Counted from the first letter of the stretch, positions 2,799 to 52,018 are shown. The stretch: DNA of 52,209 nucleotides from Desulfonatronovibrionaceae bacterium (GCA_046539845.1 JBKHGE010000012.1:1-52209); one strand, 5' to 3'. The notes: generated by a model from the sequence alone, not told the origin. Program-made: numbers and translations.

Positions 2799-2813
2799 TA
2801 AATCGGAGGCGGA

Positions 2814-3149
2814 ATGCTGCTCGACATTCAAGAACGCTACGGGCCCGGAGCCAAGATAATGAAGGCCCTGGGACACCCGACCAGACTGTTTATCGTGGAC
2901 ACGCTGAGCAGACAAAACAGATGTGTTTGCGAGCTGACCGAGATGATCGGCGCGGATATATCCACAGTGTCCAAGCACCTGTCCGTACTCCGGGAGGCTG
3001 GGGTGGTGACCAGCGAAAAGCGGGGTACTGAGGTGCATTACCGCTTGGCTGCACCGTGTGCGGCCGATTTTTTCAAGTGCCTGGACAACATGCTCAAGAC
3101 TGGATTTAAACGGCAAAAGAGGTGCTTTCCCGACTTTGCTTGGGATTAA
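2814..3149 (+). CDS. arsR: ArsR/SmtB family transcriptional repressor
   Basis: KALGHPTRL...RCVCELT...STVSKHLSVLREAGVV winged HTH; directly upstream of arsC. Confidence 0.88.
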   Translation: MLLDIQERYGPGAKIMKALGHPTRLFIVDTLSRQNRCVCELTEMIGADISTVSKHLSVLREAGVVTSEKRGTEVHYRLAAPCAADFFKCLDNMLKTGFKRQKRCFPDFAWD

Positions 3150-3213
3150 AGCGGATTGATTCTTTTGCGAAAATGAACTGACCCGAGCTTACCCGGGTCC
3201 GCAGGGGCAAGTA

Positions 3214-3651
<438 letters not shown>

Positions 3652-3746
3652 CGGACAATCTGCTAGCTCGATGCGGGGACAATGAACCCGGGTACTGGCA
3701 GCCCGAAAAGTTCGGTTTCCCAAATAGCTAAAAATCAAGACTAGGA

Positions 3747-4421
3747 ATGAACATCAAAGAACGCCAGAGCGCGTAGATGTATCTCCCGGAAGATGTGGAT
3801 ACGGGCGACTCCCTCTTTCAGGAGGGGTTGTATATGTTGGTCTTGGTTTTCATCCTTATCATTGCCGCGTTTGCCGCCCCTGGGGAGAGGGCGCACGGAT
3901 TGTGGCTGGCCATATACGAAATCAAATGGGTCGTGACCGGGGTACTTGCTTATTGTTCTCGCCCTGATGCTAAAATCCTGGTCTGAAGGCAAGGAGATCG
4001 GATAATGGGTGCATTCCACCTGGGGATTTATGAAGCAGATATTCCCTTTGCTTTTCGCCGGGGTACTCTTTGCCGGATTCTTTCTGGACCGGCCTGGAAA
4101 CCCGGGACTCATCCCGGAGCACTTCGTAGTCGAACTGGCCGGGGCAATTCGCTGTAGGCCAATCTTTTTACTGCCTTGGCCTCGGCGCTCATGTATTTCG
4201 CCACCCTGACCGAAGTGCCCATCCTGCAGGGGCTTTTGGGTTTGGGCATGGGGCAGGGCCCGGCTTTGACCATGCTTTTGGCCGGCTCGGCTCTGTCCCT
4301 GCCCAATCTCATTGTCATCGGCAGTGTCATGGGCTGAAAGAAGACCGGGACCTTTGCCGGGCTGATTGTTGTTCTGTTCACCCTGGCGGGCATGAGTTAC
4401 GGGACGTTTTTCACCGCCTGA
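3747..4421 (+). pseudogene. Decayed DUF318/ArsP-like permease
   Basis: Fragments in different frames: MNIKERQSA*MYLP..., STWGFMKQIFPLLFAGVL...RPGNPGLIP, and MYFATLTEVPILQGLLGLGMGQGPALTMLLAGSALSLPNLIVIGSVMG*KKT (TGA at 4335-4337). Most of the N-terminal half appears to be missing. Confidence 0.8.
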
Positions 4422-4464
4422 AACCCGGACAAAAGGGCAAAAACAAGCTAAAAAGAAGAAGATC

Positions 4465-4701
4465 ATGGATATCAAGGTACTCGGACCGGGGTGTCCCAAG
4501 TGCAAGAAAGCTGAGGAACTAGTCGTGTCCGTACTCCAGGAAGAGGACATCCCCGCGCATGTGGAAAAAGTAACTGACGCCATGGATATCGCCAATTACG
4601 GGGTGTTCGGCACACCGGCAATAGTGGTGGACGGGCAGGTCATATCTGTGGGCAAGGTACCCGGCAAAGAGGAAATAAAGGCCTGGGTCCGGGGGGAATA
4701 A
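4465..4701 (+). CDS. Small thioredoxin-like redox-active disulfide protein (MTH895-like)
   Basis: IKVLGPGCPKC (CxxC) and YGVFGTPAIVVDG; a typical partner of DUF318 permeases in ars clusters. Confidence 0.88.
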   Translation: MDIKVLGPGCPKCKKAEELVVSVLQEEDIPAHVEKVTDAMDIANYGVFGTPAIVVDGQVISVGKVPGKEEIKAWVRGE

Positions 4702-4731
4702 AAGTCTGGACCCCGGGTATGTTAACAGAAG

Positions 4732-4764
4732 GGGCCGAAGGGAATCTCCGGTCCCCTTTGGCCC
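4732..4764. terminator. GC-rich hairpin between convergent genes
   Basis: GGGCCGAAGGGA...TCCCCTTTGGCCC imperfect stem between the thioredoxin-like gene and the ATPase 3' end. Confidence 0.45.
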
Positions 4765-4803
4765 ATGTCCTTCCCGCAAACCGGCAATGCAGGGTGTCTG
4801 TGC

Positions 4804-6936: not shown

Positions 6937-7028
6937 ACCCCGGTCTCCCTTTTTCCCTCTTATCAATCGCAGGCTGCCCCCAAAGCCGGGCCGGGTCTTC
7001 CGGCCCAAGGACCGGCAGACCCGGCCTA

Positions 7029-7391
7029 TCAGGTGTGGCGGACATGCTCCAGGGCCTGGGCCAAAAGCGAAGAGACGTGCTCATCGTCCACGGAGTAATA
7101 GACATTCTTCCCTTCCCGCCTGTATCTGACCAGCCGGGCAGCCTTTAAGACCCGAAGCTGGTGCGAGACCGCGGACATGCTCATATCCAAAACCATGGAC
7201 AGATCACACACGCAGAGCTCCTTTTGGGCCAGGGCATGCAGGATCTTGCTCCTGGTTGTGTCCCCCAGGGCCTTGAACAGTTCGGTCATCCGCCTAAGCT
7301 CGTCCTCCTCCAGCATAAGCCGCCGGACAAAGCAAACCGCCTCCTGATCAAAACCGAATTCCTCGCAGACATCGCTCTTTGCATTTACCAT
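7029..7391 (-). CDS. CadC/ZiaR/SmtB-like metal-sensing ArsR repressor
   Basis: N-terminal Cys (DVCEEF), ELCVCDL and alpha5 site DDEH-x10-H; upstream of the P1B ATPase. Confidence 0.88.
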   Translation of the reverse strand: MVNAKSDVCEEFGFDQEAVCFVRRLMLEEDELRRMTELFKALGDTTRSKILHALAQKELCVCDLSMVLDMSMSAVSHQLRVLKAARLVRYRREGKNVYYSVDDEHVSSLLAQALEHVRHT

Positions 7392-7410
7392 AGCAGCCGC
7401 CTTATTTTTA

Positions 7411-7426
7411 TTGAACAGTTGTTCAA
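7411..7426. promoter_or_regulatory. SmtB/CadC-type operator, perfect 7-2-7 inverted repeat
   Basis: TTGAACA-GT-TGTTCAA about 20 bp upstream of the CadC-like start; it matches the TGAACA-N2-T(A/G)TTCA core known for SmtB-like repressors. Confidence 0.75.
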
Positions 7427-7496
7427 CTATTCATTTATGGTCCGACTGTCAACCACTGGCTTGAAAACGCTCTTTCCGAGAACAAGCTTGGCTTGC

Positions 7497-7524
7497 TTGA
7501 CATATCCGTTTATCCGGATATAAT
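7497..7524 (+). promoter_or_regulatory. Consensus sigma70 promoter of arsR-hgcAB with an overlapping palindromic operator
   Basis: TTGACA (7497-7502)-N16-TATAAT (7519-7524); ATATCCG-N6-CGGATAT (7502-7521) spans the spacer and overlaps the -10 box. Confidence 0.8.
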
Positions 7525-7530
7525 GTTTTC

Positions 7531-7902
7531 ATGCATAAAAAGGCCCTTATTTTTAAGGCCCTGTCCGAGGAACCCAGACTGCGTATCCTTTCGCTTTTGA
7601 CTTCCGGCGAGCTCTGCGTCTGCGAAATCGAGGCGGCTCTAGGACTCCCCCAGTCTACAGTTTCCCGGCATCTGGCCCTGCTCAGGCAGGCCGAGCTCGT
7701 CCAGGGAAGGAGAAAAGGCGTCTGGATGTACTACCGGCTGTTGGACGATCCTGACGGCATGCACAAGCAGATCCTGGAGGTTGTTCGCATCTATCTCACG
7801 CAGGATCCCGCGGCTCAAAAGGACCTGTCCAGGCTGAAGGATTATTTCGCCCGCGCAAAAAACTCTCCCTGCTGCCCGCACCGGGAGAAATCCCTGGACT
7901 GA
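7531..7902 (+). CDS. arsR: ArsR-family repressor heading the hgcAB operon
   Basis: FKALSEEPRLRIL...GELCVCEI...QSTVSRHLALLRQA; C-terminal CC pair (SPCCPH). Confidence 0.88.
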   Translation: MHKKALIFKALSEEPRLRILSLLTSGELCVCEIEAALGLPQSTVSRHLALLRQAELVQGRRKGVWMYYRLLDDPDGMHKQILEVVRIYLTQDPAAQKDLSRLKDYFARAKNSPCCPHREKSLD

Positions 7903-7953
7903 ACCCGGATAGGCTAAACCAGACAGGACAAAAAATTCACTTTGGAGACAGGC

Positions 7954-9204
7954 ATGCAGAAACCGCCCCCATTCAACGGTACCGGGCTCCCCTCCAGGTG
8001 CTGCGACTCGGAACAGGAATGCTGCTCAACCGCCCCAAAAAGCGCCGCGGCACCTCCTTTGCCGTATACATTCGTGTCCCGGCTAGACTCCCAGGAGCCG
8101 GAGGGGGAAAACGAACCCTGTTGCGGACCTCCTCCCGGCCCTTCGGCCGGGCGCTGGGAACTGCCGGGTTACAAAATCTATCCGTTTGTAACCGGATTTG
8201 TATCCACCCCTGCGGGTTGGATCCCCGCACTCTCCACCCGCAGGAAGAAAGTGGATCTAGCGGTCGCCCTGCTCATCCGGACCGGTTTCCGTCACCAGGG
8301 ACTGGAAGCAGTGACCCCCGGTTTATATTGCCTGGGAGCACCGGATCAGAACTCCCCGGTTCTGGTCACAGCTAATTACAGACTGAGCCTGGACGCCCTG
8401 CGCTTTAATTTAAACGGTACGCACGCCTGGATTCTGGTCCTGGATACCAGGGGGATAAATGTGTGGTGCGCCGCCGGGAAAAAGCTCTTTTCCACCCAGG
8501 AGGTGATCCGCATGGTGAATGTAGCCGGTGTGGACAAGATTGTGGCCCATAGAGAGCTCATCCTGCCCCAGCTGGCCGCAACCGGTGTGGCCGGGCACGA
8601 AGTAGCCAAGGCTGGCAATTTTTCCGTTACCTGGGGCCCGGTTCGCGCTGAGGATATCTCGAGTTTTCTTTGCACCCGGCGGGTTGATCCCAGGTTGCGC
8701 ACCGTCACTTTTAACCTCCGGGAAAGGGCAGAACTTATCCCCTTGGAATTCTATAATTTTTTCCAAAAAGGGGTGTTGGCCCTTGTTTTTTTGTTTTTTA
8801 TTTCCGGGATCGGTCCGAATTTGTTCTCAATTTCCGCCGCCTGGAGCAGGGGAATCCTTGCGGCCTAGGGGCTGCTGGCCGGAGCGCTAGGGGGACTGAT
8901 TTTTTTGCCCCTACTCCTTCCTTGGCTGCCCGGGAGGGCCTTTTCTTTGAAGGCCCTTTTTCCGGGTCTGGCCCTGGGTCTGGCCCTCATTTGGGGCGCC
9001 AAATCCGGATTGGGCCTTGCCGAGGCCCTGGCCATGCTTGTTTTATCCGCTGGGACGAGTTCGTTTCTGGGAATGCATTTTACCGGCTCCACTCCCTATA
9101 CCTCGCCTTCCGGAGTGGAAAAAGAAATGAAGTTGGCCCTGCCCCTGCAGGGAGCGGCCTTTCTGGCCGCAATCGCCTTGTGGACCGGGTCGGCTTTTGT
9201 TTAA
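7954..9204 (+). pseudogene. hgcA: Mercury methylation corrinoid protein HgcA, interrupted by an in-frame TAG at 8866-8868 (pseudogene, readthrough or sequence error)
   Basis: Cap-helix motif GINVWCAAGK, plus SPVLVTANY, LILPQLAA and WGPVRA. The transmembrane domain continues in the same frame after the stop (...SRGILAA*GLLAGALGGLIFLPLLLPWLPGRAFSLK...FTGSTPYTSPSGVEKEM). Followed by hgcB. ATG 7954 has a GGAG SD. Confidence 0.92.
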
Positions 9205-9215
9205 ACGGGGGAGTT

Positions 9216-9506
9216 ATGCGCGGTTTTAGATACCTGTCTGACGTGTCCACCTTACGACTGGACAAAGAAAAATGCGTCGGCTGCGGTCAATGTGTGGCGG
9301 TCTGCCCCCACGCGGTGTTCAAAGTGACCAACGCCCGGGCGGAAATAGTGGACAAAGACGGGTGCATGGAATGCGGGGCCTGCGCTTTGAACTGCCCGGG
9401 CAAAGCCCTGGATCTGGACCCAGGCGTGGGTTGTGCCGCACTTATCATCAGCAGATGGCTCAAAAAGGCGGGGCTGTCCCGAGGGACATCCCCCTCATGC
9501 TGCTAG
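9216..9506 (+). CDS. hgcB: Mercury methylation ferredoxin HgcB
   Basis: Two CxxCxxCxxxCP clusters (CVGCGQCVAVCP; CMECGACALNCP), GVGCA and C-terminal CC. ATG 9216 follows GGGGGAG, 11 bp after hgcA. Confidence 0.93.
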   Translation: MRGFRYLSDVSTLRLDKEKCVGCGQCVAVCPHAVFKVTNARAEIVDKDGCMECGACALNCPGKALDLDPGVGCAALIISRWLKKAGLSRGTSPSCC

Positions 9507-9551
9507 GCGAGCCCCGAACCCGTAACGCACAAGTCACCGGGGGGACCCGGA

Positions 9552-9974
9552 TCAGGAATTGCTGTCCAGCACCAGCGGGGGTTTGCCCCGCCTAAAGCGT
9601 AAATAATTTATAATCCTCAGCGTTGGTCCCCGGGACACGATCCAGCGCTCCAGCCTGAATTTGCCCGGAAAGTTCATGAGCATCATCCCCACCAGAATGG
9701 TCAATACACCCTGCCCGGGCAATAACAGCATGGCCACTCCGGCCGCGACAAGCACAGCACCGGCCAGATTCTTCACCACCTGCAAAAGCAGCCACAAAAC
9801 AGGGAAACGCCTGCGCCCCAGGAAACTTTCGGGTCGCCTCTCTCCGGAGAAATAGTCCGCCGGCAATCGGACCACTGCCCAGGGAATCACTATCAGGGCG
9901 GCAAGAAACATGAGCAACGAGACCCCGGCCAGACTCAGAGAAGCTGCCGCGTGTTCAACAAACCATTCCAGCAT
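9552..9974 (-). CDS. PGPGW-domain membrane protein
   Basis: RLPADYF...AGVAMLLLPGQGVLTILVG...FPGKFRLERW; SD GGAGGAG before ATG 9974. Confidence 0.75.
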   Translation of the reverse strand: MLEWFVEHAAASLSLAGVSLLMFLAALIVIPWAVVRLPADYFSGERRPESFLGRRRFPVLWLLLQVVKNLAGAVLVAAGVAMLLLPGQGVLTILVGMMLMNFPGKFRLERWIVSRGPTLRIINYLRFRRGKPPLVLDSNS

Positions 9975-10005
9975 ACGCTTTATCTCCTCCGGGATTGAAA
10001 CGGGT

Positions 10006-11304: not shown

Positions 11305-12109
11305 ATTCCGGCCTTAAAAATCGTCCAAGGGCCCACTCCACGTGCTCGAGCGGGACAAGGGTGTCCAGGCAGGGACCGTGCGGTCGCTGGTTCAGGATGC
11401 CATAGGCCGGCAGGGGGTACACGTCCTGGATACCGCTGGAGAGATCCCGCTCGCAGGCCACGGCCAGGATAAAGCGGGGACGGACATTGACCACGATCCT
11501 GCGGGCAATGGTTCCGCCGGTGGCTATGGCCAGATGCACCCCGTAACTGTCGCTCAGATCCAGAAGGCCGGCTATGGGGCATTTCCCGCACCGCTTGCAG
11601 TTACGGATATCATAGGTCAGCCGGATTTTACACCTGCTGCGCTGCAGACAATGCGGCATGAGCATGAGCACCTCCTCCGGATTGTACTGCCGGGCCTCGG
11701 CCATGACGATTTCGTTGTTAACCTTGATAAACGAGGCCCGCACCCTTTGCTTGGGAATGCCCAGGGCCAGTCCGAGCAGGGTCATGAGCGGAAGGAAAAA
11801 TTTTATGATCAGCCCGCGCAGCTTCTGGGAAAAAAGGATGTTTTTGTGCAAAAGGATGCTTAGGACCAGTCCCAGACTGGACCAGGCGATAAAGATTATG
11901 AGCGCCAGAAAGATCCCGCCCAGGACCCACGGGGCCAATGGGTGCAGATTACGCAGACCGATATACGGAATGACCCACAAAAGGACAAGCAGGAGAATGA
12001 CCAGGATCGAGCTGCCTGTTACCAGCCCGATGAACAGGCGCTTCTTGGCGATAAAGGAGGAATCAATCTCCCTTTCCAAAGAAGATTCGGTTTTTCTTTC
12101 CTGATTCAA
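11279..12109 (-). CDS. DUF116 family membrane protein
   Basis: MPHCLQ, CKRCGKCPI, ATGGTIAR, AVACERDL and GPCLDT motifs. Confidence 0.85.
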   Translation of the reverse strand: MNQERKTESSLEREIDSSFIAKKRLFIGLVTGSSILVILLLVLLWVIPYIGLRNLHPLAPWVLGGIFLALIIFIAWSSLGLVLSILLHKNILFSQKLRGLIIKFFLPLMTLLGLALGIPKQRVRASFIKVNNEIVMAEARQYNPEEVLMLMPHCLQRSRCKIRLTYDIRNCKRCGKCPIAGLLDLSDSYGVHLAIATGGTIARRIVVNVRPRFILAVACERDLSSGIQDVYPLPAYGILNQRPHGPCLDTLVPLEHVEWALGRFLRPEYVPEKKQE

Positions 12110-39523: not shown

Positions 39524-39668
39524 GGCACCTCATTAAAGTCTCCTTTACATATTATTCCGGCAAGTAAGACAAAAGCCGCCTACATCCCGGGATATTTTCC
39601 CCATCAGTTGTCCTCCGGGATACGTGCTTTTCCATGCCCGTGCTCGTTTATTTTTAAAACCGTCCCAA

Positions 39669-40667
39669 TCAAATGCCCAAGTCTTTCAATTCTAGACCCT
39701 TTTCCCGACAGGCGGCTAGCAATACTTCCTGCTCCACAAACCAGCCCCGTTTTCGGGCTATAGCAGCCAATTCCCGCGTCTGGTGCAATGAACACCTATC
39801 CGGCTCCATCTCTCGGCTGCCCTTCCACTCCGGAAGCATATCCTCAACTTTACGGACAGCCTCTTTGTCCGGAAAAAACCTTCCCTCTCGGCCACATTTC
39901 CGGGCCATATCCTCGAATATGTTCAGACCATCCATGTCCACATCCCCGAAATGTACCCAAGCACAATCAACAGGCAGAGCTCTCAGCCAGGACACGAGCA
40001 GACGCGAGGAATATCCTCCGCAATAAATCAACAATCCATCATCCAGGCCTATTTGCCTGAACGGCTCCAGATTCTCGCAAGTAACCACCCGGCGGATCGC
40101 TTTAAAATCAAAACCTGCCGGGCCTGCGCCCCCGAGGGGATCAATCAGAACCGAACCGGCCACATATGTGACCTCGGCCAGATCCAGTCCTGTTTCCTGA
40201 TGCGGACACGGGGAAAAGGCCTTCAGTTCCAGCCTGCCCCGGGACGGAACACCCGCCTGCCATATATTTTTCAGAACCGCGACCCGCCCGATGTGCTTGG
40301 AATCTCCGAATAGTTCAGCGCTCGCCTGCTGCATGAGGCCGGAAGATATACAACTTTTCCCGGCCTCGATCGCGCGGAGCAATCGCAGACATTCATCCGC
40401 GCGGGAATTTACGGCAACATCCAGGCCGATACTGGCGGCAAGATTTTCGGCATCTGCCTGCTTTTGGCGCTCCTGGGGACAATGCGTCTCGATCAATCCA
40501 AGCAATGTTTCCGGGTCCAAAAGTTCCACCCGGCTACTCTTTTTCTCCGCTATCCCTGCCCGGACCAATTTATCCAGATACGAACTAAATGGCCTTGTAC
40601 CCTGCTCCAAAAGAGCCTGCCAAGCCGAGCACAGCTTGAGCATATCTTTTTTGCCCTGATTATTCAT
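39669..40667 (-). CDS. jetD: Wadjet JetD/MksG-like Toprim nuclease (DUF2220-like)
   Basis: Toprim motifs VVTCENLEPF, LIYCGGY and HFGDVDMDGLNIF, plus FVEQE; last gene of the SMC operon. Confidence 0.75.
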   Translation of the reverse strand: MNNQGKKDMLKLCSAWQALLEQGTRPFSSYLDKLVRAGIAEKKSSRVELLDPETLLGLIETHCPQERQKQADAENLAASIGLDVAVNSRADECLRLLRAIEAGKSCISSGLMQQASAELFGDSKHIGRVAVLKNIWQAGVPSRGRLELKAFSPCPHQETGLDLAEVTYVAGSVLIDPLGGAGPAGFDFKAIRRVVTCENLEPFRQIGLDDGLLIYCGGYSSRLLVSWLRALPVDCAWVHFGDVDMDGLNIFEDMARKCGREGRFFPDKEAVRKVEDMLPEWKGSREMEPDRCSLHQTRELAAIARKRGWFVEQEVLLAACREKGLELKDLGI

Positions 40668-40703
40668 GACTACCGGCTACTCATCGTCCAAAATTTACCG
40701 GTT

Positions 40704-41060
40704 CTATCCATTTTTTTTGGCAAGCGTTTGTACCAACTTTTCAAGCTGATTGTGTAACTCGGGAATATTTTTATTTGCCGTAGTCCACACAATACGGATA
40801 TTCACCCCAAAGTATTCATGCACAATAACATTACGCATTCCCCGAATTACATCCCAGGGTATTTCCGGATGGGCAGCTGCAACTTCTTGCGGTATATGTG
40901 CAGACGCCTCCCCGATAACGGTTAACTGTCGGATTACCGCATCCATAGTCTTTTCATCATCGCAAAAATCATCAAAACTAAGACCATGAATATACGACTG
41001 TATCTTTCGGCTCGATTCAAGCATATCCCGGAGGCGAAATTGCCATTTCCTAGTCGACAT
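40704..41060 (-). CDS. HEPN ribonuclease toxin (HepT/DUF86 family)
   Basis: DAVIRQLTVIGEA, HPEIPW, RNVIVH (Rx4H motif), EYFG and IVW. Confidence 0.9.
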   Translation of the reverse strand: MSTRKWQFRLRDMLESSRKIQSYIHGLSFDDFCDDEKTMDAVIRQLTVIGEASAHIPQEVAAAHPEIPWDVIRGMRNVIVHEYFGVNIRIVWTTANKNIPELHNQLEKLVQTLAKKNG

Positions 41061-41346
41061 GTTGGGCCTCCCGAAGTATATCTCCTCTAAGTTCCGGATG
41101 AAGGGAATCCTCAGTCACCAGATCAACAGGGCCTCCAAGCAACTTGCTCAATTCATCCTTTAACTGAACAAACTCAAACAGCCCTATCTCCGCATCCGGT
41201 TTAAATTCCACCAGAAGATCAATATCGCTCCCTGACAAAGCTTCTTCCCTAACTGAGGAACCAAAAAGCATAATTTTTTTAACTGAAAATTCCTGCAATA
41301 ATTCTCTGTTGGCGCGTATTTTTTCTTCTATGTCCCTTTTGTTCAT
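41050..41346 (-). CDS. Minimal nucleotidyltransferase (MNT/MntA) antitoxin
   Basis: LFGS-x10-DID, LFEF, and LLGGPVDLV motifs; ATG overlaps the mukB-like stop (ATGA). Confidence 0.9.
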   Translation of the reverse strand: MNKRDIEEKIRANRELLQEFSVKKIMLFGSSVREEALSGSDIDLLVEFKPDAEIGLFEFVQLKDELSKLLGGPVDLVTEDSLHPELRGDILREAQHVD

Positions 41347-44300
41347 AACCGTCCCTCGCTTCTCATCTCCGAATTTTCTTCCTGTCCGTGATACACGCTG
41401 ACCTGGGTCACCCCCTCGGAAAGAGGAGACAGCATGTGGCAAAGCGATCCCGGCACCCCTACCACCCGGGGGAGGGCTACCAACAGCTGGCAATGGACCT
41501 GCTCCAGAAGTCCGCGTATGGTTTTGAGCGACTCGTCATCCAACCGTTCAGCCTCGTCCAGGGCCATCATCAACACTCCCTGACCCTGTCCGGCACCGTG
41601 CTCTTTTCCAAAATAAAAAAGCAGGCTCAGACAAATAGCCAGATTCATGCCCAGCCCCTCGCCTCCGGAAAGCCCTCCGGTCCGATTCTCGCCGGACTCA
41701 TCCTCTACCTCGTATCCGATGCGGATATAGCTGCGGTAATCCAGGATCTCCTCCTCGGCCAGCCGGGTTCGGCCATAGCGGTATATGGTATTCTGGATAT
41801 CCGCGATGAATTCCTGCACGGAAACGCTTCCATCCAGCTGAAACAGATTCATCTGTTTTCCGCGCAATTTTTTAAGGCCCTCGTAGGCCTGATTTGTATC
41901 CCGGCGAAGAGAGATGCGCCGTATCCGCCCGAAGCGGAGTCCGGATAGAATGCGGTTTACACCGGAAATCTTGCGGTCCAGTTGGTGAATCTCCTGATCC
42001 ACGCCGGTTCTGATCTGCTCCACGTAATTGCGAATCCTGCCCTCTATCTGGCCCAGCTCCGCGCGCAATTCGCGCAGGGTGTTTTCCTGATCCTCCAGAG
42101 CGACATCCTGTGGAAGCAGGTTGGTAAGCATGTCCGTGACCACCGTCTCCGGATCGCTGTCCCGGGGGACGCGTATTTCCTGTTCCTCGGCCAGGGCCTT
42201 TATTTCCTCGTCCAGCTCGCTGCTAGTCCTTTCCCATTCGCTTTCGGCCGTGGCTCTTTCTTTTTCCGTAGCCCGCATCTCCGGGACCGGTTCCCGGGGA
42301 TAGAACCCGGAAAATTTCTGCAAGGCCTCGTCCCGTCTCTGTTCCGCCTTGGCCAGCTCCCGCTCCTGCCGGGCAATGCTTTCCGCCAAATCGCGTAATT
42401 CGTTTTTGCAGCCGCCTTCCTCACCCAGTTTCTGTTCCCGCACCCGGCGCTTGCGCTTTATCTCTCCCTGGACGCGCTCAAGCTCCCGTTCCAATTCCTC
42501 GGCCCGGCTAAAATCAATCTTCCCCTCCAGGATCTCCCGGGGTTCCTCTTCCTCAAGGGTCTGCATCCTGTTTTGCAGTTTCTTTTCCTCGGCCGCGTGC
42601 TTCTCGCATTTTTTCTGCAAATCCTTTATATCCTGTTCCAGCCTGGAAAGGGTCCTCTCCAATTCACTCTTTTCCGCCTGCTTTGTATCCAGACTCTCTT
42701 GCGCGCGTTCAATTCCTTTTTGCTCTTTTTCAAACTCTTCTGGAGCACCTTCAAAATCAAAGGCCCCTGCCAATCCGCTCACTCTGTCCACGGCCGCCCT
42801 TTGCTGGCGCATTAACTTGGCCCGGCCTTCCAGTTCCCGGACCTCCGCATCCAGGCGTTTAAACTCGCTTTCCGCGTCTCTGTCCAAATACGCGGTCCAT
42901 GCGGACAAAAGCTTATCTATCAAGTCGATAATAAAGTTCAGCTCCTTTTCCCTCTCTTCGGTATCTCCTGCTTCCCGCCTTAAATTTTCCATTTCCCGGT
43001 TTATCTCGCGCATCTGCTCCGCGCGCGCCTCCACCCCGAGGAGGACCGGACCGCGCGGCGAATACCAGCCAAGCCCGCTGGTTCCGGCGATTGTTCCCTC
43101 ATCGCTTTCAACCATAATACCGCAATCAGCCAGCTTGCTCTCTTCCGGCTCGACTATCAGAAAGGGATCCTCACCTTGTGCCAAATCTTGCCACCTGCTT
43201 CCTTTTGCAGGCTCCAGCGCACTGACGAAAGGACCGAGTCCGGCCTGCTGTTTTTCCGCTGCTTTCAGGTCCAGATGCTCGAAACGGGCGGCATAAGGAA
43301 CGCCGTATCCGTTTTCAACCAGACGAGCGGCACCCGGCGGCAGGGGCGGACGCCCCTTTTTGAGTTCCTCCAGGTCCAGTTCCAATTTCTCAAGACGCTT
43401 GTTCAACTCCTCGCGTTTCACCCATTCTTCTTTGATAAACCCTTGACGCTTCTTCTTTTCTTCCTCAAGCCGCGCTTTTGCAAAGCCGGATTCTTTTTCC
43501 GGGGCGATATAGCGCTTGAGGCTGCTCGCCTTTTCAAGCGCGGCCAGATGAGCGTCCAGGCGTTTTTGGGCTGCATCCCGTTCGCGGCGCAAATGCTCCA
43601 GAGAACAGAAACGATCCCACTCGGTCCGAAACTCACGCCTGAGCTGCTCCCACTCTTGCCTGTTTTGCACGGGACGGGCAAAGAGTTCAGCGCATTGTTC
43701 AAGCCCGGCGCAAAGCTCTTCCCATTGCCCCTTCTCCCGGCTCAGACGCTTCACCCGCTCCCGGGCGGCGGCCAAGTATTCCTTGAGCTCAGCGATCTCG
43801 GCATCCACCTTGCCCAGGGATTCCCGACCGGTACCAACCTCCTGTTCGTGCCGCTTCAACTCGTTTTCGGCCTTTTGCTTTTGCTCTTGTTTCTCCGGCA
43901 GGGCGTCCGCAGCCTCTTTGTATGCCCGATAATGCTCCAATCTGCGGTTAAGGTCCGATTTTCTGCCCAAGTACTTGTCCCGCTGCGCCTCCAAAAACTC
44001 CAATTCCTTTTCCAGTCCGTCCAGTTCCTCACGCAGGGACTTAATCCTCTTCTTGCCTTGTGCTTCGCGCTTTTGTTGCTCTAAAAGTCCGGCCCGCAGC
44101 TTTTCATAAGCGGAAACGCACAAGACCGCGTCCATGCCCAGAGCCCTGAACCTCTCCCTATCCAGGCGCTTTAGAAGCCCTTCCAAACGCCTGCGTTTAT
44201 CCCGGATCCATTCCAGTCGCCTTAGCTTTTGCTCAATTTCCCGCCTTTTTTGCATCAAGGTTTCCACATGGTTAAAACTCAACTTTTTCTTTTTCTTCTC

Positions 44301-44957
44301 CGAGCAAAGCATCCGTTCCAGAAACTTGTGCAGACGATCCATACGCGGACGGCTGACCTGCTGCCAGAGGGCGCCGAAAAGTTCCTTTCCCGCGCCCTTG
44401 GCAGATAGATCCATGGGAAAAAGACCGTTTTCAAAAAGAAAGCTGTGGTAAGCCTCCACGCTTTCAAAATCCCGGACCAGAGCCAGCGGGGAGGTCGCGA
44501 GCACGTTTTTCTGAAGTTCGCGACGGTCGGGGCAGATGCGTCCGGTTTCCTCATCCAGAAAAAATCCACTTTCCGGTTCCACCCCTTCCAGAACATACGG
44601 CTGCAATTCAACGCCCACCCCGCTCGGCTTGACCCGCATGCGCACTCCTACCGCACCGACTGTCTCGTGTCCGGTTATTTGCAGGCATATCCAGGCTATC
44701 CTGCCTCGCAGCTGCCCGGCCAGATCCCGCTCGCCATGCCCGGAGGCAGCATTCAGATTTATGTGCCGCAGATGGCAGATAAAAACAGTCTGCACCGCGT
44801 CCAGAAGCGTGGTTTTACCCACGGCGTTGTTTCCGGACAAAATGGTCATCCTCGGATGCAGCAAAATGTCAGCGTGCGGGAAATAGCGGTATCCGAAAAG
44901 CATGAGCCGGCTTACGTTTATCTCCTCCAGGGCGAACAACTTTTCAGGACTGTTCAT
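41343..44957 (-). CDS. MukB/MksB/JetC-like SMC ATPase (1204 aa)
   Basis: N-terminal Walker A SGNNAVGKTT, long coiled coils around a central globular region, LDYRSY, signature LSGGE, Walker B/D-loop MALDEAERLD and QLLVALP. Start at ATG 44957 after a GGAG SD. Confidence 0.85.
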   Translation of the reverse strand: MNSPEKLFALEEINVSRLMLFGYRYFPHADILLHPRMTILSGNNAVGKTTLLDAVQTVFICHLRHINLNAASGHGERDLAGQLRGRIAWICLQITGHETVGAVGVRMRVKPSGVGVELQPYVLEGVEPESGFFLDEETGRICPDRRELQKNVLATSPLALVRDFESVEAYHSFLFENGLFPMDLSAKGAGKELFGALWQQVSRPRMDRLHKFLERMLCSEKKKKKLSFNHVETLMQKRREIEQKLRRLEWIRDKRRRLEGLLKRLDRERFRALGMDAVLCVSAYEKLRAGLLEQQKREAQGKKRIKSLREELDGLEKELEFLEAQRDKYLGRKSDLNRRLEHYRAYKEAADALPEKQEQKQKAENELKRHEQEVGTGRESLGKVDAEIAELKEYLAAARERVKRLSREKGQWEELCAGLEQCAELFARPVQNRQEWEQLRREFRTEWDRFCSLEHLRRERDAAQKRLDAHLAALEKASSLKRYIAPEKESGFAKARLEEEKKKRQGFIKEEWVKREELNKRLEKLELDLEELKKGRPPLPPGAARLVENGYGVPYAARFEHLDLKAAEKQQAGLGPFVSALEPAKGSRWQDLAQGEDPFLIVEPEESKLADCGIMVESDEGTIAGTSGLGWYSPRGPVLLGVEARAEQMREINREMENLRREAGDTEEREKELNFIIDLIDKLLSAWTAYLDRDAESEFKRLDAEVRELEGRAKLMRQQRAAVDRVSGLAGAFDFEGAPEEFEKEQKGIERAQESLDTKQAEKSELERTLSRLEQDIKDLQKKCEKHAAEEKKLQNRMQTLEEEEPREILEGKIDFSRAEELERELERVQGEIKRKRRVREQKLGEEGGCKNELRDLAESIARQERELAKAEQRRDEALQKFSGFYPREPVPEMRATEKERATAESEWERTSSELDEEIKALAEEQEIRVPRDSDPETVVTDMLTNLLPQDVALEDQENTLRELRAELGQIEGRIRNYVEQIRTGVDQEIHQLDRKISGVNRILSGLRFGRIRRISLRRDTNQAYEGLKKLRGKQMNLFQLDGSVSVQEFIADIQNTIYRYGRTRLAEEEILDYRSYIRIGYEVEDESGENRTGGLSGGEGLGMNLAICLSLLFYFGKEHGAGQGQGVLMMALDEAERLDDESLKTIRGLLEQVHCQLLVALPRVVGVPGSLCHMLSPLSEGVTQVSVYHGQEENSEMRSEGRL

Positions 44958-45711
44958 CGTCTCCTCCGGATGCGCTTTCTTCCTCGTATTCCCCACCGCT
45001 TTCCGTTGCACCCCACAAGGCGGCCGCGATCTTTTCCACGTCCACTTCTCCCGGGCCTTTGTTTTCGGCCAGGGCGTATCTGGCCAAGTCCCAGAACCGC
45101 TGCAAGCCAGGCAGGCGGTAGATATCCAGATTTTGCCATCCGGCACGCATGTTCGGGGCAAGTTCTATGCAACGGATGCGATGCAAATCATCCAGACCGG
45201 AACGCATCCATTTCTTGAGGTTGTTTTTCTGATCCTCTTGCTCCTGCCGTGTTTTCATCCCCTTTTGCACCGGATTGAACACGGCCACGAGCATATTGAA
45301 ATCAAAACTGCCGTACAGGGTTTCGTGCACTTTCGAGGCCCGAACATAGTCCATGCTTTCCATGCCCTGACTCATGAAATACCAGGCCAGGTAGAGCCCC
45401 ATGAAGGTGGCCCCCCTTTTCAGCTTGACCGTTGATACCGCGGAAGAAGCCGAGTGCAGATAGTAAAAGGTTTCACCGCCGAACTCGCTGCCCACCACCT
45501 TGTAGCCAAGAAAGGAAAAGAATTCGCGCCATAAATCGAGGTTGATCTCGAAATAACGGAAAATCCCGCCGCAGCGGTCATCCAGACAGCATCCCGCCTG
45601 GAGCTTGTGCACGATCGCCCTGGCCTTGGCCTCGTCGCGTTGCAAAAGCTCGTGAATATTGCCGGGAAACTCGCTTTCAGACTGCCTCACATTGATTTCA
45701 AACTCGGACAT
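44944..45711 (-). CDS. MukE/MksE/JetB-like KITE subunit
   Basis: 255 aa between the kleisin-like and SMC genes; WREFFSFLGYKVV...FYYL and GLYLAWYF resemble MukE winged helices. Called mainly from position. Confidence 0.65.
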   Translation of the reverse strand: MSEFEINVRQSESEFPGNIHELLQRDEAKARAIVHKLQAGCCLDDRCGGIFRYFEINLDLWREFFSFLGYKVVGSEFGGETFYYLHSASSAVSTVKLKRGATFMGLYLAWYFMSQGMESMDYVRASKVHETLYGSFDFNMLVAVFNPVQKGMKTRQEQEDQKNNLKKWMRSGLDDLHRIRCIELAPNMRAGWQNLDIYRLPGLQRFWDLARYALAENKGPGEVDVEKIAAALWGATESGGEYEEESASGGDDEQS

Positions 45712-45725
45712 TCCCTCCCCCGGAG

Positions 45726-47063
45726 TTATTTTTTTAAAAGCCAAAGCGGCGCCACGAAAATATTCTCCTCCAGGACAAACCAGTCTCCGTCCCCGGGCCG
45801 GGCGCGGACCATGGGCCGCCATTGCGGCCAATCGCAAAGCAGGTACCACAGAGCCAAGAGCCGATTTTCATCCGCCCGGGGCATTTCCGTCCAAAGTCCG
45901 TCCAGCCACTCTTGCAGGGAAACGCCCTCATCGGGCACCTTTTCCCATCTCTGCCGGGCTATGCGCAAAAATTCCTCCTTCCATTCGGCCTCGATTCCGC
46001 GGACTTCTTCCGGCACGTATTCCCTAAGGGCAGCGAGCGATTCCATATCCATGTATTCCGGGGGGTCTTCCCGGCTCCCAGGCCAATCAATCACAATGGA
46101 GCGCAACCTGGGTTTTTCCGGCAAGGGCATGTGCACCGGAGAAAACAAGGCTTGACGCATAATTTCCATCTGCAAAGCGCACAAGCGGTCCCGCGAAGAC
46201 AGATTGCCAATGAACGACTGGTAGCTGACGCACTGATCTATGAAATCGACTATGTGCACCAGAAGCTGCTCCACCCGTTGACTGACCGCCTGCAGAAAAT
46301 CAAGCCCCTGATCGGCCAATGCGAGCATGGACCGGTCTTCCAGATATTTTTGTCTGCATAAAACAAGCAATTTTTCCAGAACCGCAAAGGAGGAGCCTTC
46401 CTGAATGGCCTCCATGATTTCCTCGACATATTCCCGGTTGGTGCGGATCATATCCAGGGCCTTGTCCAGCTCTTCCTGATCACTGCCCCCGGCCAGCCTC
46501 TTGATCTCCGCCTCCAGGGACAGAACGCCCTCCTCAATGCCCTCCAGCTTGTGCTCGATCGCTTCCCGGCTCATACCCAGCAGACTGTGCTGCAAGGCCT
46601 TGCGCAGCTCCTCGCGATCTCCTTCGTCCACCGCGCTTTTCAAGGTAACGTAGGCCGTGTTTATATGCGTGCACAAGTCCTCGGTTCCGTACTGCACGTC
46701 CTCGACCAGATCCCGGGCCAGATTCCGGCCCAAACGGGTCAGGCAGTACTCATGTCCGGAATGCGGAGAAATCGCGTTCCGTAACAGATGAAAACGCATC
46801 AAGCGATCGATTATAGTCCGCGGCTCCGGCGTGTCTTCCTCCATGTCCAGATTTTTAACGCACCTGGCAAGCTGAATGCGAAGCTCCCGGTCTGCAATCG
46901 TCTGCCTGTCCCCGCTCTTTTCCCAGCGCCATAGCCAGCCCAGGGCAACCAGATGCACCGGCTGCAAGTTAAGCCCTTTTGGGAAACGGGTAAGCACCTG
47001 ACGGAGCTGAAGAATAAACTCCCCGGCGATGCTTTCTTCCCCAAGCCCGGATTCGCTATTCAT
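45726..47063 (-). CDS. MukF/MksF/JetA-like kleisin
   Basis: 445 aa, similar in size to MukF. N-terminal winged helix IIDRLMRFHLL...YCLTRLGRNL, then a helical bundle; first gene of the F-E-B order. Confidence 0.7.
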   Translation of the reverse strand: MNSESGLGEESIAGEFILQLRQVLTRFPKGLNLQPVHLVALGWLWRWEKSGDRQTIADRELRIQLARCVKNLDMEEDTPEPRTIIDRLMRFHLLRNAISPHSGHEYCLTRLGRNLARDLVEDVQYGTEDLCTHINTAYVTLKSAVDEGDREELRKALQHSLLGMSREAIEHKLEGIEEGVLSLEAEIKRLAGGSDQEELDKALDMIRTNREYVEEIMEAIQEGSSFAVLEKLLVLCRQKYLEDRSMLALADQGLDFLQAVSQRVEQLLVHIVDFIDQCVSYQSFIGNLSSRDRLCALQMEIMRQALFSPVHMPLPEKPRLRSIVIDWPGSREDPPEYMDMESLAALREYVPEEVRGIEAEWKEEFLRIARQRWEKVPDEGVSLQEWLDGLWTEMPRADENRLLALWYLLCDWPQWRPMVRARPGDGDWFVLEENIFVAPLWLLKK

Positions 47064-47073
47064 TCAACACCCG

Positions 47074-47787
47074 TTATTTTTCGTTTTCAAAAATATACCC
47101 CGAACCGCGCACGCTTTTGATGAATTCCGGATTTTTGGGATCATCCTCAAAATACTTGCGCAGTCTGGCGATGAACGCATCCACGGTCCGGGTCTCGATA
47201 TTCGTGTTCGTCCGCCACACGTTTTTAAGGAGTTCTTTGCGGGAGAGGACCTCTCCCTTGTGCTGTATCAGGTACTGCAGCACATTGGCTTCGCTTACAG
47301 TAAGCCGGAATTTTTCTCCGGCCCCGGTCTCCACTTCCCGGGTGTGAAAATCAATGCTTTTGTCCCCGATCCGGGCCCTGGTCTTTTCCTCGCCGGTCTC
47401 CCCATACCACTGCTTGCGGGTGAGCATGCCCTCCACCCGGAGCAGGAATTCGGCCAAGTGAAATGGCTTGGTCAGATAATCGTCCGCTCCTATCTCCAGA
47501 CCCCGGATACGGTCTTTAGCACTGGTCCGGGCGGTTAGTATCAATATGGGTAAACGGGCGTTTTCCTCTCTGATCCGGACGGCCACTTCAAACCCGTCCA
47601 CCCTGGGGAGCATTATATCCAGAACTATCAGATCAAAATCCTCGCGGGAGAGAATATCCAGTGCCTCCCGGCCGTCCCCGGCCAGAACCACAACATATCC
47701 CTCCTGCTCCAGATTGAATTTCAGCCCCCGAGCCAGACTGGCCTCATCTTCAACCAAAAGGATCCTGCTGCCTTTAATCGCCTCCAT
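47074..47787 (-). CDS. OmpR/PhoB-family response regulator
   Basis: LLVEDE, LDIMLP, LTA, GADDYLTKPF, RTVDAFIARLRK and VRGSGY motifs. Confidence 0.95.
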   Translation of the reverse strand: MEAIKGSRILLVEDEASLARGLKFNLEQEGYVVVLAGDGREALDILSREDFDLIVLDIMLPRVDGFEVAVRIREENARLPILILTARTSAKDRIRGLEIGADDYLTKPFHLAEFLLRVEGMLTRKQWYGETGEEKTRARIGDKSIDFHTREVETGAGEKFRLTVSEANVLQYLIQHKGEVLSRKELLKNVWRTNTNIETRTVDAFIARLRKYFEDDPKNPEFIKSVRGSGYIFENEK

Positions 47788-48799
47788 TTTCCGCCTCCCG
47801 GGCCTTTATCCTCTGACTCATTTTTATTAGCCCTTTTAGGTAGCGTTTTTTCCGTGTCGGGTAGCGGGGCAGCTCCAGACGAAATGAGGCCCCCTTGCTC
47901 CAATAGCGCGGGGCCACGCTAATATCTCCGCCGTGATAGCGCATTATCTGCTTGGCCCAGTACAGCCCCAATCCCGTGCCTTTTATATTCGCCGAGTCCC
48001 TGCGGCTGATGCGGTAGAATTTGTCAAAGACATACTTGGCCTCGCTCCTGGGGACACCGATGCCCCGATCCGTATAATTGAGGACAAACCTGGACTTGTC
48101 GCAGGAGACAACTATGGATATCTGGACCGGACCATCGCTGTACTTGATGCTGTTATCCACCAAATTATCCAGGACAATCCGGAACGCCTTGCGGTCCACA
48201 ACACACTGGCAGCAGGCCTGTCCGGAGAGGGTCACTGCTCCGGGGGAAAGCTTGAATTGCTCGACGAGTTCGCCAACCATGTCCTCGATCAGATCCTGCA
48301 TATTGACCACTTCAAAGGCATGGGCGATCTGTTTCTGCTCCAGGGCTGGAATTTTCAGGATCGCGCTTATGAGGTCGCTTAATCGGTTACAGTCCTCAAG
48401 CATCATGTCCACGAAAGGCTTGTACTCCCTGCGGGAAAGATCCCGGGCCTGCAGGGTCTCCAGATGCAGCTGGATGGCCGCAAGCGGCGATTTGAGCTCA
48501 TGGGTCACATTGGCGATAAAATTGTCATACAATTGAGACATCTTGAACTGAACACTCAGACGGTGAAAAAGTAGGGACATGCCCACGGCTATGGCCACCA
48601 GCAGGATAAGTCCCCCGATCAGGGCAAGCAGATTGTGCGCCGCAAAGTTCAGCTGCGGGGAGAACTTTTCCCCCATTTCATTTATGAGCATGTAACTGGA
48701 TACATACCAGTATATCCACAGACCGAGCAAAATAAGCCAGGCCAATTGCACCGCCACGAAAATAAAGATGTGGTATTTAAAGGAATGTCGATATCTCAT
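47774..48799 (-). CDS. Membrane sensor histidine kinase
   Basis: Two transmembrane segments with a short loop; NVTHELKSPL, NLVDNSIKY, DRGIG, FDKFYR and GTGLGL motifs. Confidence 0.93.
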   Translation of the reverse strand: MRYRHSFKYHIFIFVAVQLAWLILLGLWIYWYVSSYMLINEMGEKFSPQLNFAAHNLLALIGGLILLVAIAVGMSLLFHRLSVQFKMSQLYDNFIANVTHELKSPLAAIQLHLETLQARDLSRREYKPFVDMMLEDCNRLSDLISAILKIPALEQKQIAHAFEVVNMQDLIEDMVGELVEQFKLSPGAVTLSGQACCQCVVDRKAFRIVLDNLVDNSIKYSDGPVQISIVVSCDKSRFVLNYTDRGIGVPRSEAKYVFDKFYRISRRDSANIKGTGLGLYWAKQIMRYHGGDISVAPRYWSKGASFRLELPRYPTRKKRYLKGLIKMSQRIKAREAENGGD

Positions 48800-50861: not shown

Positions 50862-51872
50862 CTAACCAAAACTTGGATTTGCATACTCATTTAAAACATT
50901 ATTGATTTCTTCCAATATCTCTTGCCTTAGCTTTTCGGGTTCAAGCACCCTGACTTCGGGACCATGCCCAAGAAGCCACCTTTTTACATCAAACCAACCT
51001 GAAGTCTTCATCTTAAAGATAATGCTACCATCCTCATTATCAATAATTTCCTGGTCCGCAGAAAATATCCTTTCTTTTATATATTTCGCTTGGTTGGGAG
51101 AAAAAACTACTTTCAAATCAATTGGTTCGTCATATACCAAGTCAAAAGAATTGGCCAAGATAGCTTCCGCATCAAATTCCTCAGGATATTCAAATCCGCT
51201 CTCTTGCTCTTCTATGCTCTCTATTCGTTCAACGGCCAATATGCGTATTTCATCAAATCTCGTGGCCCGAATAAAAATATATAGTCCGCCGCTAGATTCA
51301 AAAAAATACAAGGGGTCTATCCGGAAGCACTTACTTTTCTCATCAGTAAAAGAAAAGTAGTGAATCAGACAGGTTTTTTCTTTGATCATAGCCTGGGCAA
51401 GTGAATCTATTATCTCCTGCTTTCCGGAATAATCTTTTGTTATTTTTTGGGAAGAAAGAAATAATGAATTTAACTTGTTAACGCGGGTCTGAATATTGGC
51501 GGGCAAAAATTGAGAAAGCTTGCCATAAGCCGACCTTATCCTCTCAGCAATATCCGTCCCCTCAAAAACGCTCGATTCGGTTTTCAAAAAATAAAGCGCC
51601 AGCACTTCGGCCAAATTCAATCGAACATCCGGCAAAGTGATATTGGGCAGTTTTATGATGTAGTCAGAATCAAGCTTCCAAGACTTTTCCCTTGAACTAT
51701 CCTGTTCTTCGTCAAATATCGGGAATCCGAGATCCTGAATAATATCCAAAAGCCTATACACGCTCCTGCGGTCAATCTCCAGAGATCTTGATAAACGATT
51801 AATTGAGATCCCTTCCGGCTGGCTAAGCAAATCAACTGCCCTCAAAAGCTGAACTATATTCCTTCCCCGCAA
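50862..51872 (-). CDS. HTH-WYL-WCX transcriptional regulator
   Basis: N-terminal HTH (RRSVYRLLDII..LGFPI), WYL region (IDPLYFF...GLYIF...RILAVERI) and WCX tail (WLLGHGPEVRVLEPEKLR). TTG start 51872 with SD AAGGAG; AT-rich. Confidence 0.9.
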   Translation of the reverse strand: MRGRNIVQLLRAVDLLSQPEGISINRLSRSLEIDRRSVYRLLDIIQDLGFPIFDEEQDSSREKSWKLDSDYIIKLPNITLPDVRLNLAEVLALYFLKTESSVFEGTDIAERIRSAYGKLSQFLPANIQTRVNKLNSLFLSSQKITKDYSGKQEIIDSLAQAMIKEKTCLIHYFSFTDEKSKCFRIDPLYFFESSGGLYIFIRATRFDEIRILAVERIESIEEQESGFEYPEEFDAEAILANSFDLVYDEPIDLKVVFSPNQAKYIKERIFSADQEIIDNEDGSIIFKMKTSGWFDVKRWLLGHGPEVRVLEPEKLRQEILEEINNVLNEYANPSFG

Positions 51873-51895
51873 AATTTTCTCCTTTTTAATAGTGA

Positions 51896-51914
51896 TATGA
51901 CCAAAAATGTCATA
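51896..51914. promoter_or_regulatory. Inverted repeat, candidate operator of the WYL regulator
   Basis: TATGAC-N7-GTCATA about 24 bp upstream of the WYL start. Confidence 0.55.
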
Positions 51915-52018
51915 CCCAGGTGGTAAAAGATAACTGAAGGGAGAAAAGAGGGCAATCCCGGGCAAGGCAGTCCTTGCAAAAAAGTACCTTTGCAAACAGC
52001 ATAACCGTGGAGAGTTAT

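Follow-up and report, generated by a model that had tools for sequence, protein, structure and literature searches.

Why does a toxin–antitoxin (TA) pair lie inside a putative anti-plasmid operon, and does it take part in the defence mounted by that operon or simply travel with it? The question is raised by 52,209 nt of DNA from a Desulfonatronovibrionaceae bacterium (GCA_046539845.1, JBKHGE010000012.1:1-52209; this whole stretch is called the window below), in which six co-directional minus-strand genes span positions 39669-47063. Four of the genes encode the predicted subunits of a Wadjet-group system, here named JetA to JetD, and the other two, encoding a minimal nucleotidyltransferase (MNT) and a HEPN-type RNase, are found between JetC and JetD. 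We consider it probable (roughly 0.6) that the MNT-HEPN pair is an autonomous HepT/MntA module that rides on the transcription of the operon and on JetC-coupled translation, as an addiction or selfish element. Its insertion looks like hitch-hiking and not like a built-in second defence arm.

The operon and the embedded pair

The gene order that a first-pass annotation had proposed for this locus (kleisin, KITE, SMC, MNT, HEPN, Toprim) was borne out by the open reading frames (ORFs), and the coordinates and sequence agreed with its claims of overlapping junctions and a 36-bp gap before the Toprim gene. JetA, a MukF/JetA-like kleisin of 445 aa (45726..47063, on the minus strand like all genes of the operon; ORF call and fold match), is separated by 14 nt from JetB, a MukE/JetB-like KITE subunit (44944..45711; 255 aa from the ATG; clade profile). 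JetB in turn overlaps by 14 nt with JetC, an SMC-type ABC ATPase of the JetC/MksB/MukB kind (41343..44957; 1204 aa from the ATG; Pfam, PADLOC and motifs). The TGA of JetC is overlapped by the ATG of the next gene (ATGA), which encodes the MntA-like minimal nucleotidyltransferase, a putative antitoxin (41050..41346; 98 aa from the ATG; PF01909). An overlap of 11 nt joins this gene to that of the HEPN/HepT-like RNase, a putative toxin (40704..41060; 118 aa; PF01934), and 36 nt separate the HEPN stop from the ATG of JetD, a JetD/MksG-like Toprim nuclease of short form (39669..40667; 332 aa; PF09983 and structural model).

The same six-gene arrangement was found in genome G003 (locus L012) and in a metagenome contig (L058), with protein identities of 83-97%, and a contig from another study's run bridges JetD, HEPN, MNT and JetC at ~91% identity. 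It follows that the arrangement is genuine and did not arise by misassembly of the window. Among the contigs listed for four read runs over 39600-42400, none lacked the cassette. One run (X5) gave contigs that break at both cassette borders, with the cassette at about half the word depth of its flanks; it was not used, the depth being unreliable.

JetC matched PF13558 SbcC_Walker_B (7e-11), PF13555 AAA_29 and PF04310 MukB_N (1e-8), as well as the PADLOC model JetC1 (1.2e-20), and its match to the NCBIfam MukB model (4.7e-36, 124 bits) lies far below the cut-off of 699. It is an SMC ATPase of the kind expected in the Wadjet group, with a Walker A motif (GNNAVGKT, 42-49), an ABC signature (LSGGE, 1096-1100) and a Walker B motif (MMALDE, 1130-1135). 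For JetD, the matches to PF09983 JetD_C (1.6e-7) and PADLOC JetD1 (2e-13) both cover the Toprim part only. The AlphaFold model of the protein (predicted local distance difference test, pLDDT, 86.8) was closest in Foldseek to MksG (8b7f, 1.2e-7) and Pseudomonas aeruginosa JetD (7til, 1.5e-4), with Topo VI-A and Spo11 next in rank, while the JetD sequence profile reached MksG in the PDB only at an E-value of 0.19. The catalytic positions E198 (within CEN) and D242 and D244 (within GDVDMDG, 241-247) are invariant in 21 homologues. Both elements of a JetD/MksG nuclease, an N-terminal arm and a Toprim domain with E and DxD, are present.

The two remaining subunits were recognised by more remote comparison. 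At E<=0.01, a search of JetA against Pfam, PADLOC and NCBIfam gave nothing but one weak LmuB match, and its profile found nothing relevant among PDB sequences. An AlphaFold model of moderate confidence, built from a 10-sequence alignment (pLDDT 73.7; predicted template modelling score, pTM, 0.38), had MukF as its top Foldseek matches (9gm7_C, 1.1e-8, probability 1.00; 7nz2, 7.4e-8), with JetA chains at 3.6e-3 to 8e-3 (Wadjet-II 9qe0_E, 3.6e-3; Wadjet-I 8as8_E, 5e-3). The MukF/JetA identity of the kleisin is thus a matter of fold only, no sequence model having matched. JetB had no match in Pfam, PADLOC or NCBIfam. A profile of 10 clade members recovered five distinct MukE sequences in the PDB (best 7nyw_E, 8.5e-11) and no JetB chain, which places the protein in the MukE/JetB family through the clade profile. 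The label 'MukFEB + JetD', given in the first-pass annotation, is apt, since the kleisin is MukF-like, the KITE protein MukE-like and the nuclease closest to MksG/JetD.

Membership of Wadjet type I, II or III would have all four subunits recognised by the PADLOC models of a single type. At this locus JetC and JetD matched type-1 models over parts of their length and JetA and JetB matched no Jet model (E<=0.01), and the locus was therefore assigned to the broader Wadjet group without a type. On its predicted proteins, it is classed as a putative anti-plasmid operon of the Wadjet group with the order MksF-E-B-G, from a MukBEF-like clade of Desulfovibrionales-type bacteria.

In the embedded pair, the MNT protein matched PF01909 (3e-18), the PADLOC model PDC-S09 (1.2e-27) and PDB entry 1wot (3.8e-10), and carries GSx10DxD at residues 29-43. 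Its HEPN partner matched PF01934 HepT-like (7.3e-29) and carries RNVIVHEY, an Rx4HxY motif, at 76-83; it had no PADLOC match at E<=0.01 and no phmmer match in the PDB. A regular-expression search found every motif that the first-pass annotation had called intact (Walker A/B, LSGGE, GSx10DxD, Rx4H, EN...GDxD), and GSx10DxD and Rx4HxY are kept in all three intact copies of the cassette. The motif definition and AMPylation mechanism of class I HEPN/MNT (type VII HepT/MntA) modules have been described (PMC7641770), and the pair has both defining motifs and the adjacent PF01909 gene upstream of the PF01934 gene. The NCBIfam scores of MntA_antitoxin (2e-12, 46.8 bits) and HepT_toxin (4e-10, 39.5 bits) lie below the cut-off of 60 in each case, which suggests a divergent HepT/MntA subfamily. 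By families, gene order and motifs, we class the pair as a predicted type VII module.

Ratios of nonsynonymous to synonymous divergence (dN/dS) were 0.15-0.29 for MNT and 0-0.10 for HEPN, and these low values indicate that both TA genes are under purifying selection and kept functional. The cassette is present in single copy. Searches of G001 and G002 with cassette queries detected it at no other place in these genomes, and genome G000 holds two HepT/MNT pairs in total; the sole other pair of G000, on contig C3 (32381-33119), is of a different, larger type.

The JetC–JetD junction and its history

How the pair entered the operon can be read from the junctions of four same-genus genomes. In G002 JetC is joined directly to JetD (JetC...TTATGAAC-JetD), whereas the window and G003 have JetC...TTATGAAC-[MNT-HEPN]-ATGAA(T/C)-JetD, with 679 bp extra compared with G002. 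The alignment places this insert (40662..41340, minus strand) at the ancestral ATGA overlap of JetC stop and JetD start, and the 36 nt that run from the HEPN stop to the ATG of JetD (40668..40703) belong to it. The insert is flanked solely by a 6-bp repeat, ATGAA(C/T), at 41341-41346 and 40662-40667, within which its boundaries are ambiguous. The GC content of the cassette is 42.9%, with 0.40-0.41 at third codon positions (GC3), compared to 54-56% and a GC3 of 0.57-0.68 for JetA-D. Judged from this composition and the alignment, the cassette looks like a recent insertion of foreign origin.

Neither terminal inverted repeats nor long direct repeats were found at the borders of the insert, and the window contains no tRNA gene; a transposon, an integron cassette and an integrase-mediated island were therefore rejected as descriptions of the MNT-HEPN cassette. 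Promoter- and terminator-like sites in the window were not above shuffled expectation, and none lies at a cassette border. With no outstanding signal of either kind, we infer that the six genes are read from one transcript.

The place of the insert also bears on the expression of JetD. In cassette-free relatives JetD starts at the ATGA overlap after GAGGGA; in the window the MNT gene occupies both, and the 36-nt spacer before JetD holds no strong Shine-Dalgarno sequence. The cassette could accordingly be imagined as an expression attenuator that uncouples JetD from JetC and lowers nuclease dosage, relaxing plasmid exclusion or self-damage, with the TA content incidental. Loss of the overlap and of GAGGGA to MNT is what this explanation requires, and other insertions interrupt the junction elsewhere, namely the 7.5-kb island of G010 and the transposases of L063 (DDE type) and L056, all described below. 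However, JetD is intact and under purifying selection (dN/dS 0.16-0.18), and purifying selection on both TA genes would be left unexplained. In L012 (G003) and L058, moreover, HEPN is 127 aa long and its stop, counted from the sequence, falls ~12 nt before the JetD ATG, which could permit re-initiation. We regard an attenuating role as very unlikely, and altered JetD dosage may be a side effect of a hitch-hiking module.

Close relatives differ in the presence of the cassette. Two same-genus genomes, G001 and G002, show JetD directly after JetC. JetA-D of G001 are 99.0-100% identical to those of L058, which carries the cassette, so that very close strains differ in cassette presence. In G001 a run of 100 N follows the direct junction, and a copy of the first 55 nt of JetD stands on either side of it; the pattern is what an assembly-graph branch at the JetD ATG would give. 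A decayed copy was found in L056 (JetD 70% identical), where only 86 nt of the 5′ part of HEPN are left, at 94% identity, fused through GATGA microhomology to the spacer and an intact JetD. In this region (1106-2440) a DDE_3 (IS630-type) transposase gene occupies the opposite strand directly upstream of the remnant, at the place expected for MNT and JetC. JetC and MNT are missing, and the Wadjet operon of L056 is thus broken.

The cassette also has a history distinct from that of its flanks. Between G003 and L058 synonymous divergence (dS) was 0.013 for HEPN, compared to 0.29 for JetC and 0.20 for JetD; between G000 and L058 it was 0.12 for MNT and 0.57 for JetC; and between G000 and G003 it was 0.28 for MNT and 0.39 for HEPN, with flanks at 0.54-0.67. 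In the JetD tree G000 groups with G001 (support 88/99), while the JetC tree places G003 with G001 and L058 (support 99/99), and on both trees sequences with and without the cassette are interleaved. By these distances the cassette is judged younger than its Jet flanks. The lower dS of the cassette together with the incongruent trees argues that it spreads by recombination, and the simplest account of the sequences is that the cassette, or parts of it, has been exchanged by homologous recombination through the conserved Jet flanks.

Other junctions of the clade and the role of the pair

To place these observations in the wider clade, JetC/JetD junctions were surveyed in related genomes, public genomes and metagenomes. 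Among 49 non-duplicate loci the junction could be placed in 39, making 40 with the window. Fourteen loci were dropped as the same contigs as L011-L029 (L030-L033, L035-L037, L041, L043, L044, L046, L049, L050 and L053), and three more (L054, L055 and L076) because only 66-73 aa of the Toprim domain matched, at 32-34% identity. Ten of the 49 loci had no JetC match, eight of them with less than 150 nt upstream of JetD. Many of the surveyed loci come from metagenome bins, and near-identical contigs of different assemblies were counted separately (for example L025/L070, L034/L065 and L018/L042).

The MNT-HEPN pair lies between JetC and JetD at 3 of the 40 junctions (the window, L012 and L058), all in one genus. 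At 30 of the 40 the JetC-JetD gap is <=60 bp, and in 29 of these it falls between -19 and +22. The others comprise a scaffold gap (L011), a 7.5-kb island (L021), a transposase next to what is left of JetC (L063), a degraded locus (L052), and three loci in which no gene was called in the gap (L047, L024 and L029, with gaps of 431, 156 and 115 bp, respectively). A phylum-wide sample gave the same picture of a compact junction: JetD_C was detected in 14 of 301 genomes, and all 10 canonical JetC-JetD pairs overlap or abut. The first-pass annotation had suggested counting such junctions, and had described a one-off insertion as one in which jetD immediately follows the SMC gene in close relatives and no other lineage shows the pair. 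This pattern was found in part, with the direct junction seen in two close relatives and the cassette recurring in two further loci of the same genus. JetD homologues themselves occur in 20 of 61 related genomes, a patchy occurrence that suits an accessory system.

Different cargo occupies the junction of L021 (G010), where a 7.5-kb island (2483-9991) separates JetC from JetD. Besides DUF4160/DUF2442 and BrnT/CopG-type antitoxin pairs it encodes a glyoxalase and a GNAT acetyltransferase, and several of its ORFs fall into no family. A 60-bp palindromic repeat that contains GGGACAGTCCC twice is present in four copies, which delimit the island and divide it into segments. The exact pattern of the repeat core, GGGACAGTCCC-N7-GGGACAGTCCC, occurs 48 times in G010 (both strands) and once in G023, and is absent from G026 and G000. 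A slightly variant copy lies in the 156-bp JetC-JetD spacer of L024 (G026; 1839-1996). The G010 repeat looks like a dispersed element of the repetitive extragenic palindrome/miniature inverted-repeat transposable element (REP/MITE) type.

TA-type genes were also seen downstream of JetD. In two Desulfohalobiaceae-type contigs, L040 (11084-11817) and L071 (1111-1880), a different MNT-HEPN pair, with a larger MNT (135 aa, Polbeta NTase) and a HepT-like partner, begins ~70-90 nt past the JetD stop. Within 1.5 kb downstream of JetD, L022 has PIN and Phd/YefM-type genes (11363-12015), and L025 (3503-4188; the same as L070) has a Phd/YefM-type gene with a 129-aa partner without a family.

Some loci of the clade appear to be damaged. 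In L063 (6231-9990) JetC is reduced to a C-terminal remnant (an ORF of 163 aa), and between this remnant and JetD the opposite strand encodes a DDE_Tnp_1_4 transposase; a MobA/VirD2-type relaxase gene lies upstream, and neither JetA nor JetB is present. This locus is degraded and possibly carried on a mobile element. In L018/L044 (~9732-9834) and in L026/L050 (~3590-3596 in L026 coordinates) the alignment of JetC is split in two, with a change of frame or a gap between the parts, which may reflect frameshifts or pseudogenes.

Does the pair then serve the operon that carries it? The first-pass annotation had favoured a composite defence, in which DNA-topology sensing is backed by RNase-driven dormancy or an abortive arm. 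In such a system JetABC would be coupled to HepT, with failed or overwhelmed plasmid restriction as the trigger. What speaks for such coupling is the predicted tight tie of MNT to JetC translation and its predicted co-transcription with JetD, the recurrence of TA modules at or near JetD in the clade, and the published couplings of TA modules to defence, outlined for CreTA and for HicAB with Cas13a. Our results nevertheless lent the composite no support. The insert is recent and of foreign composition, it is confined to 3 of 40 junctions, near-identical operons exist with and without it, and it has decayed in L056; 36 of the 40 clade junctions are gene-free, 30 of those with a gap <=60 bp. The dN/dS of JetC and JetD is unchanged in cassette-bearing lineages (for JetD, 0.16-0.21 with or without the cassette), and the TA families differ between loci, which indicates that no specific partner interface is conserved. 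We therefore consider an integrated system most improbable.

The varied cargo could instead mean that the junction of JetC and JetD is a preferred landing site for TA modules that guard Wadjet. As MntA would be made solely through translation coupled to JetC, silencing or deletion of the operon, or a block of its expression, would then starve the cell of antitoxin and unleash HepT. The pair in one genus, the BrnT/DUF4160 island in another and the second kind of MNT-HEPN downstream of JetD in a third lineage would all be instances of such cargo. If true, the pair would do for Wadjet with proteins what CreTA does with RNA, and its triggers would include plasmid or phage counter-defence. No sequence feature at the locus suggests that control of HepT depends on the activity of JetABCD, and we think it quite unlikely that the pair acts as a guard.

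The explanation that we prefer, an autonomous module carried by the operon, can be set out as follows. All six genes would be read from a single transcript, and MntA would be produced through coupling to the translation of JetC. As the motifs suggest, MntA would silence HepT by AMPylating Tyr83 of the Rx4HxY motif; should the supply of MntA fail, HepT would cut RNA and growth would arrest. A pair of this kind would be hard to lose, and could move between related strains by homologous recombination via the Jet flanks. It would be neither a subunit nor a signalling arm of Wadjet, and the uncoupling of JetD translation, with a possible decrease in dosage, would be a side effect.

Several points weigh against this explanation. 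An addiction module had been the fallback proposal of the first-pass annotation; it fits these data better than the composite does, yet addiction is a prediction from family membership, and both proteins score below the NCBIfam equivalog cut-offs of HepT/MntA. Purifying selection and spread within the genus fit a host-useful module equally well, and the MNT protein matches (~1e-27) a model that PADLOC lists as a 'phage defence candidate', PDC-S09. No donor of the cassette was identified: among 33 matches from 35 word-sharing candidates, the closest HEPN beyond the 90% cluster shares 61-63% identity. Finally, some unrelated clade members have TA genes at JetD or next to it, and this hints that the association is not random, which would not be expected of a purely selfish element. 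A functional association of TA modules with Wadjet is possible, although the modules concerned belong to different families and genes of these types are frequent in the genomes.

Alternatively, the pair could itself be a defence system, of the anti-phage, abortive-infection type, working in parallel to the anti-plasmid Wadjet and sharing its transcription without contact. Known systems nest in this way inside BREX, DISARM, Hma and type I restriction–modification loci, and the PDC-S09 match (1.2e-27), the operon orientation and overlapping reading frames of the pair, its purifying selection and its recombinational spread in the genus are all consistent with an independent defence. By contrast, HEPN lacks a PADLOC match at E<=0.01, close relatives lack the cassette, L056 retains only a decayed copy, and the flanks of the operon are of housekeeping type. 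The latter consist of an aminotransferase, a methyltransferase, a DUF2784 protein, a two-component pair and a nitronate monooxygenase, and a defence island around the operon was rejected on these grounds. Taken together, we judge an embedded anti-phage system unlikely, though the main rival, and retain the hitch-hiking HepT/MntA module as the probable explanation.

The two-component pair consists of a histidine kinase (47774-48799) and an OmpR-type response regulator (47074-47787), both on the minus strand and assigned by Pfam. The stop of the response regulator lies 10 nt before the JetA ATG, a spacing from which the two-component genes may be co-transcribed with the Wadjet operon. Synteny of the kinase and regulator with the operon was found only in the four same-genus loci. 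Towards the contig end, an HTH-WYL-WCX regulator gene (50862-51995, minus strand) lies in a stretch of low GC (0.40 at 51001-52000). Regulators of this type often accompany defence loci.

Comparison with known systems

The operon shares the order kleisin, KITE, SMC and Toprim nuclease with the Wadjet systems (JetABCD, equivalent to MksBEFG; types I-III; Escherichia coli GF4-3, P. aeruginosa, C. glutamicum and N. vireti). The likeness extends to the JetD model, which resembles MksG/JetD, to the Walker A/B and signature motifs and to the Toprim E and DxD. It differs in that JetA and JetB are recognised by none of the PADLOC JetA1-3/JetB1-3, Pfam or NCBIfam models and lie nearer to MukF and MukE than to solved JetA and JetB. 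Its JetD has 332 aa, whereas the matched solved chains have 365-374 modelled residues, and two additional genes stand between JetC and JetD. The clade itself is already known, related FEBG operons having been catalogued by Burmann et al. 2025 (PMC7617805). Data S1 of that work includes 'FEBG' operons in Desulfohalobium, Desulfovermiculus, Desulfomicrobium and Desulfonatronum, and two of its FEBG rows share their mksG coordinates with L014 and L023. The table holds 609 FEBG, 155 GFEB and 93 FEB rows, each count being half of the raw occurrences as the table is stored twice.

The chromosome condensin MukBEF provides the best matches of the kleisin (MukF) and the KITE protein (MukE), together with the MukB_N and NCBIfam MukB matches of the SMC. 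MukBEF, as characterised in PMC7617805, lacks the MksG/JetD nuclease that is present here; in addition, the SMC scores 124 against the 699-bit MukB cut-off and the operon has a scattered occurrence, in 20 of 61 related genomes.

With HepT/MntA of Shewanella oneidensis (SO_3166/SO_3165) the pair shares the order of PF01909 upstream of PF01934, the motifs and the small size of the proteins (98 and 118 aa here). It differs from that module in having no promoter region of its own, a start codon fused to the SMC stop and sub-equivalog scores. The nested and co-oriented position of the cassette is also that described under 'guilt-by-embedding' in the preprint of Payne et al. 2024, as outlined there and in the PADLOC PDC set, whose PDC-S09 model the MNT matches. 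TA modules that guard CRISPR-Cas, such as CreTA, have the same physical tie to a defence locus, by which loss or silencing could be penalised. CreTA, however, consists of two RNAs and its repression depends on the Cas effector itself, while the link here consists only of shared transcription and translation. A limited search of the literature found no description of a TA module embedded in a Wadjet operon, and an earlier report is possible.

These comparisons have practical consequences. The kleisin and KITE proteins of the clade (~30 loci) escape the Pfam, NCBIfam and PADLOC Jet models, and automated defence finders may therefore miss or truncate such systems. Catalogues that require an adjacent nuclease gene would call a locus of this kind nuclease-free, and the gaps in the models together with the adjacency rule would undercount both Wadjet systems and their embedded cargo. 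The natural plus and minus alleles, with JetA-D 99-100% identical, offer a test of whether the TA pair stabilises, tunes or backs up Wadjet.

The locus further illustrates that a defence operon can be invaded by a TA cassette at a point of translational coupling. Its parts are all of known kinds (FEBG operons of the Wadjet group, pairs of the HepT/MntA type and cassettes nested within defence operons), and the six-gene operon of the window is a new instance in which the three are combined.

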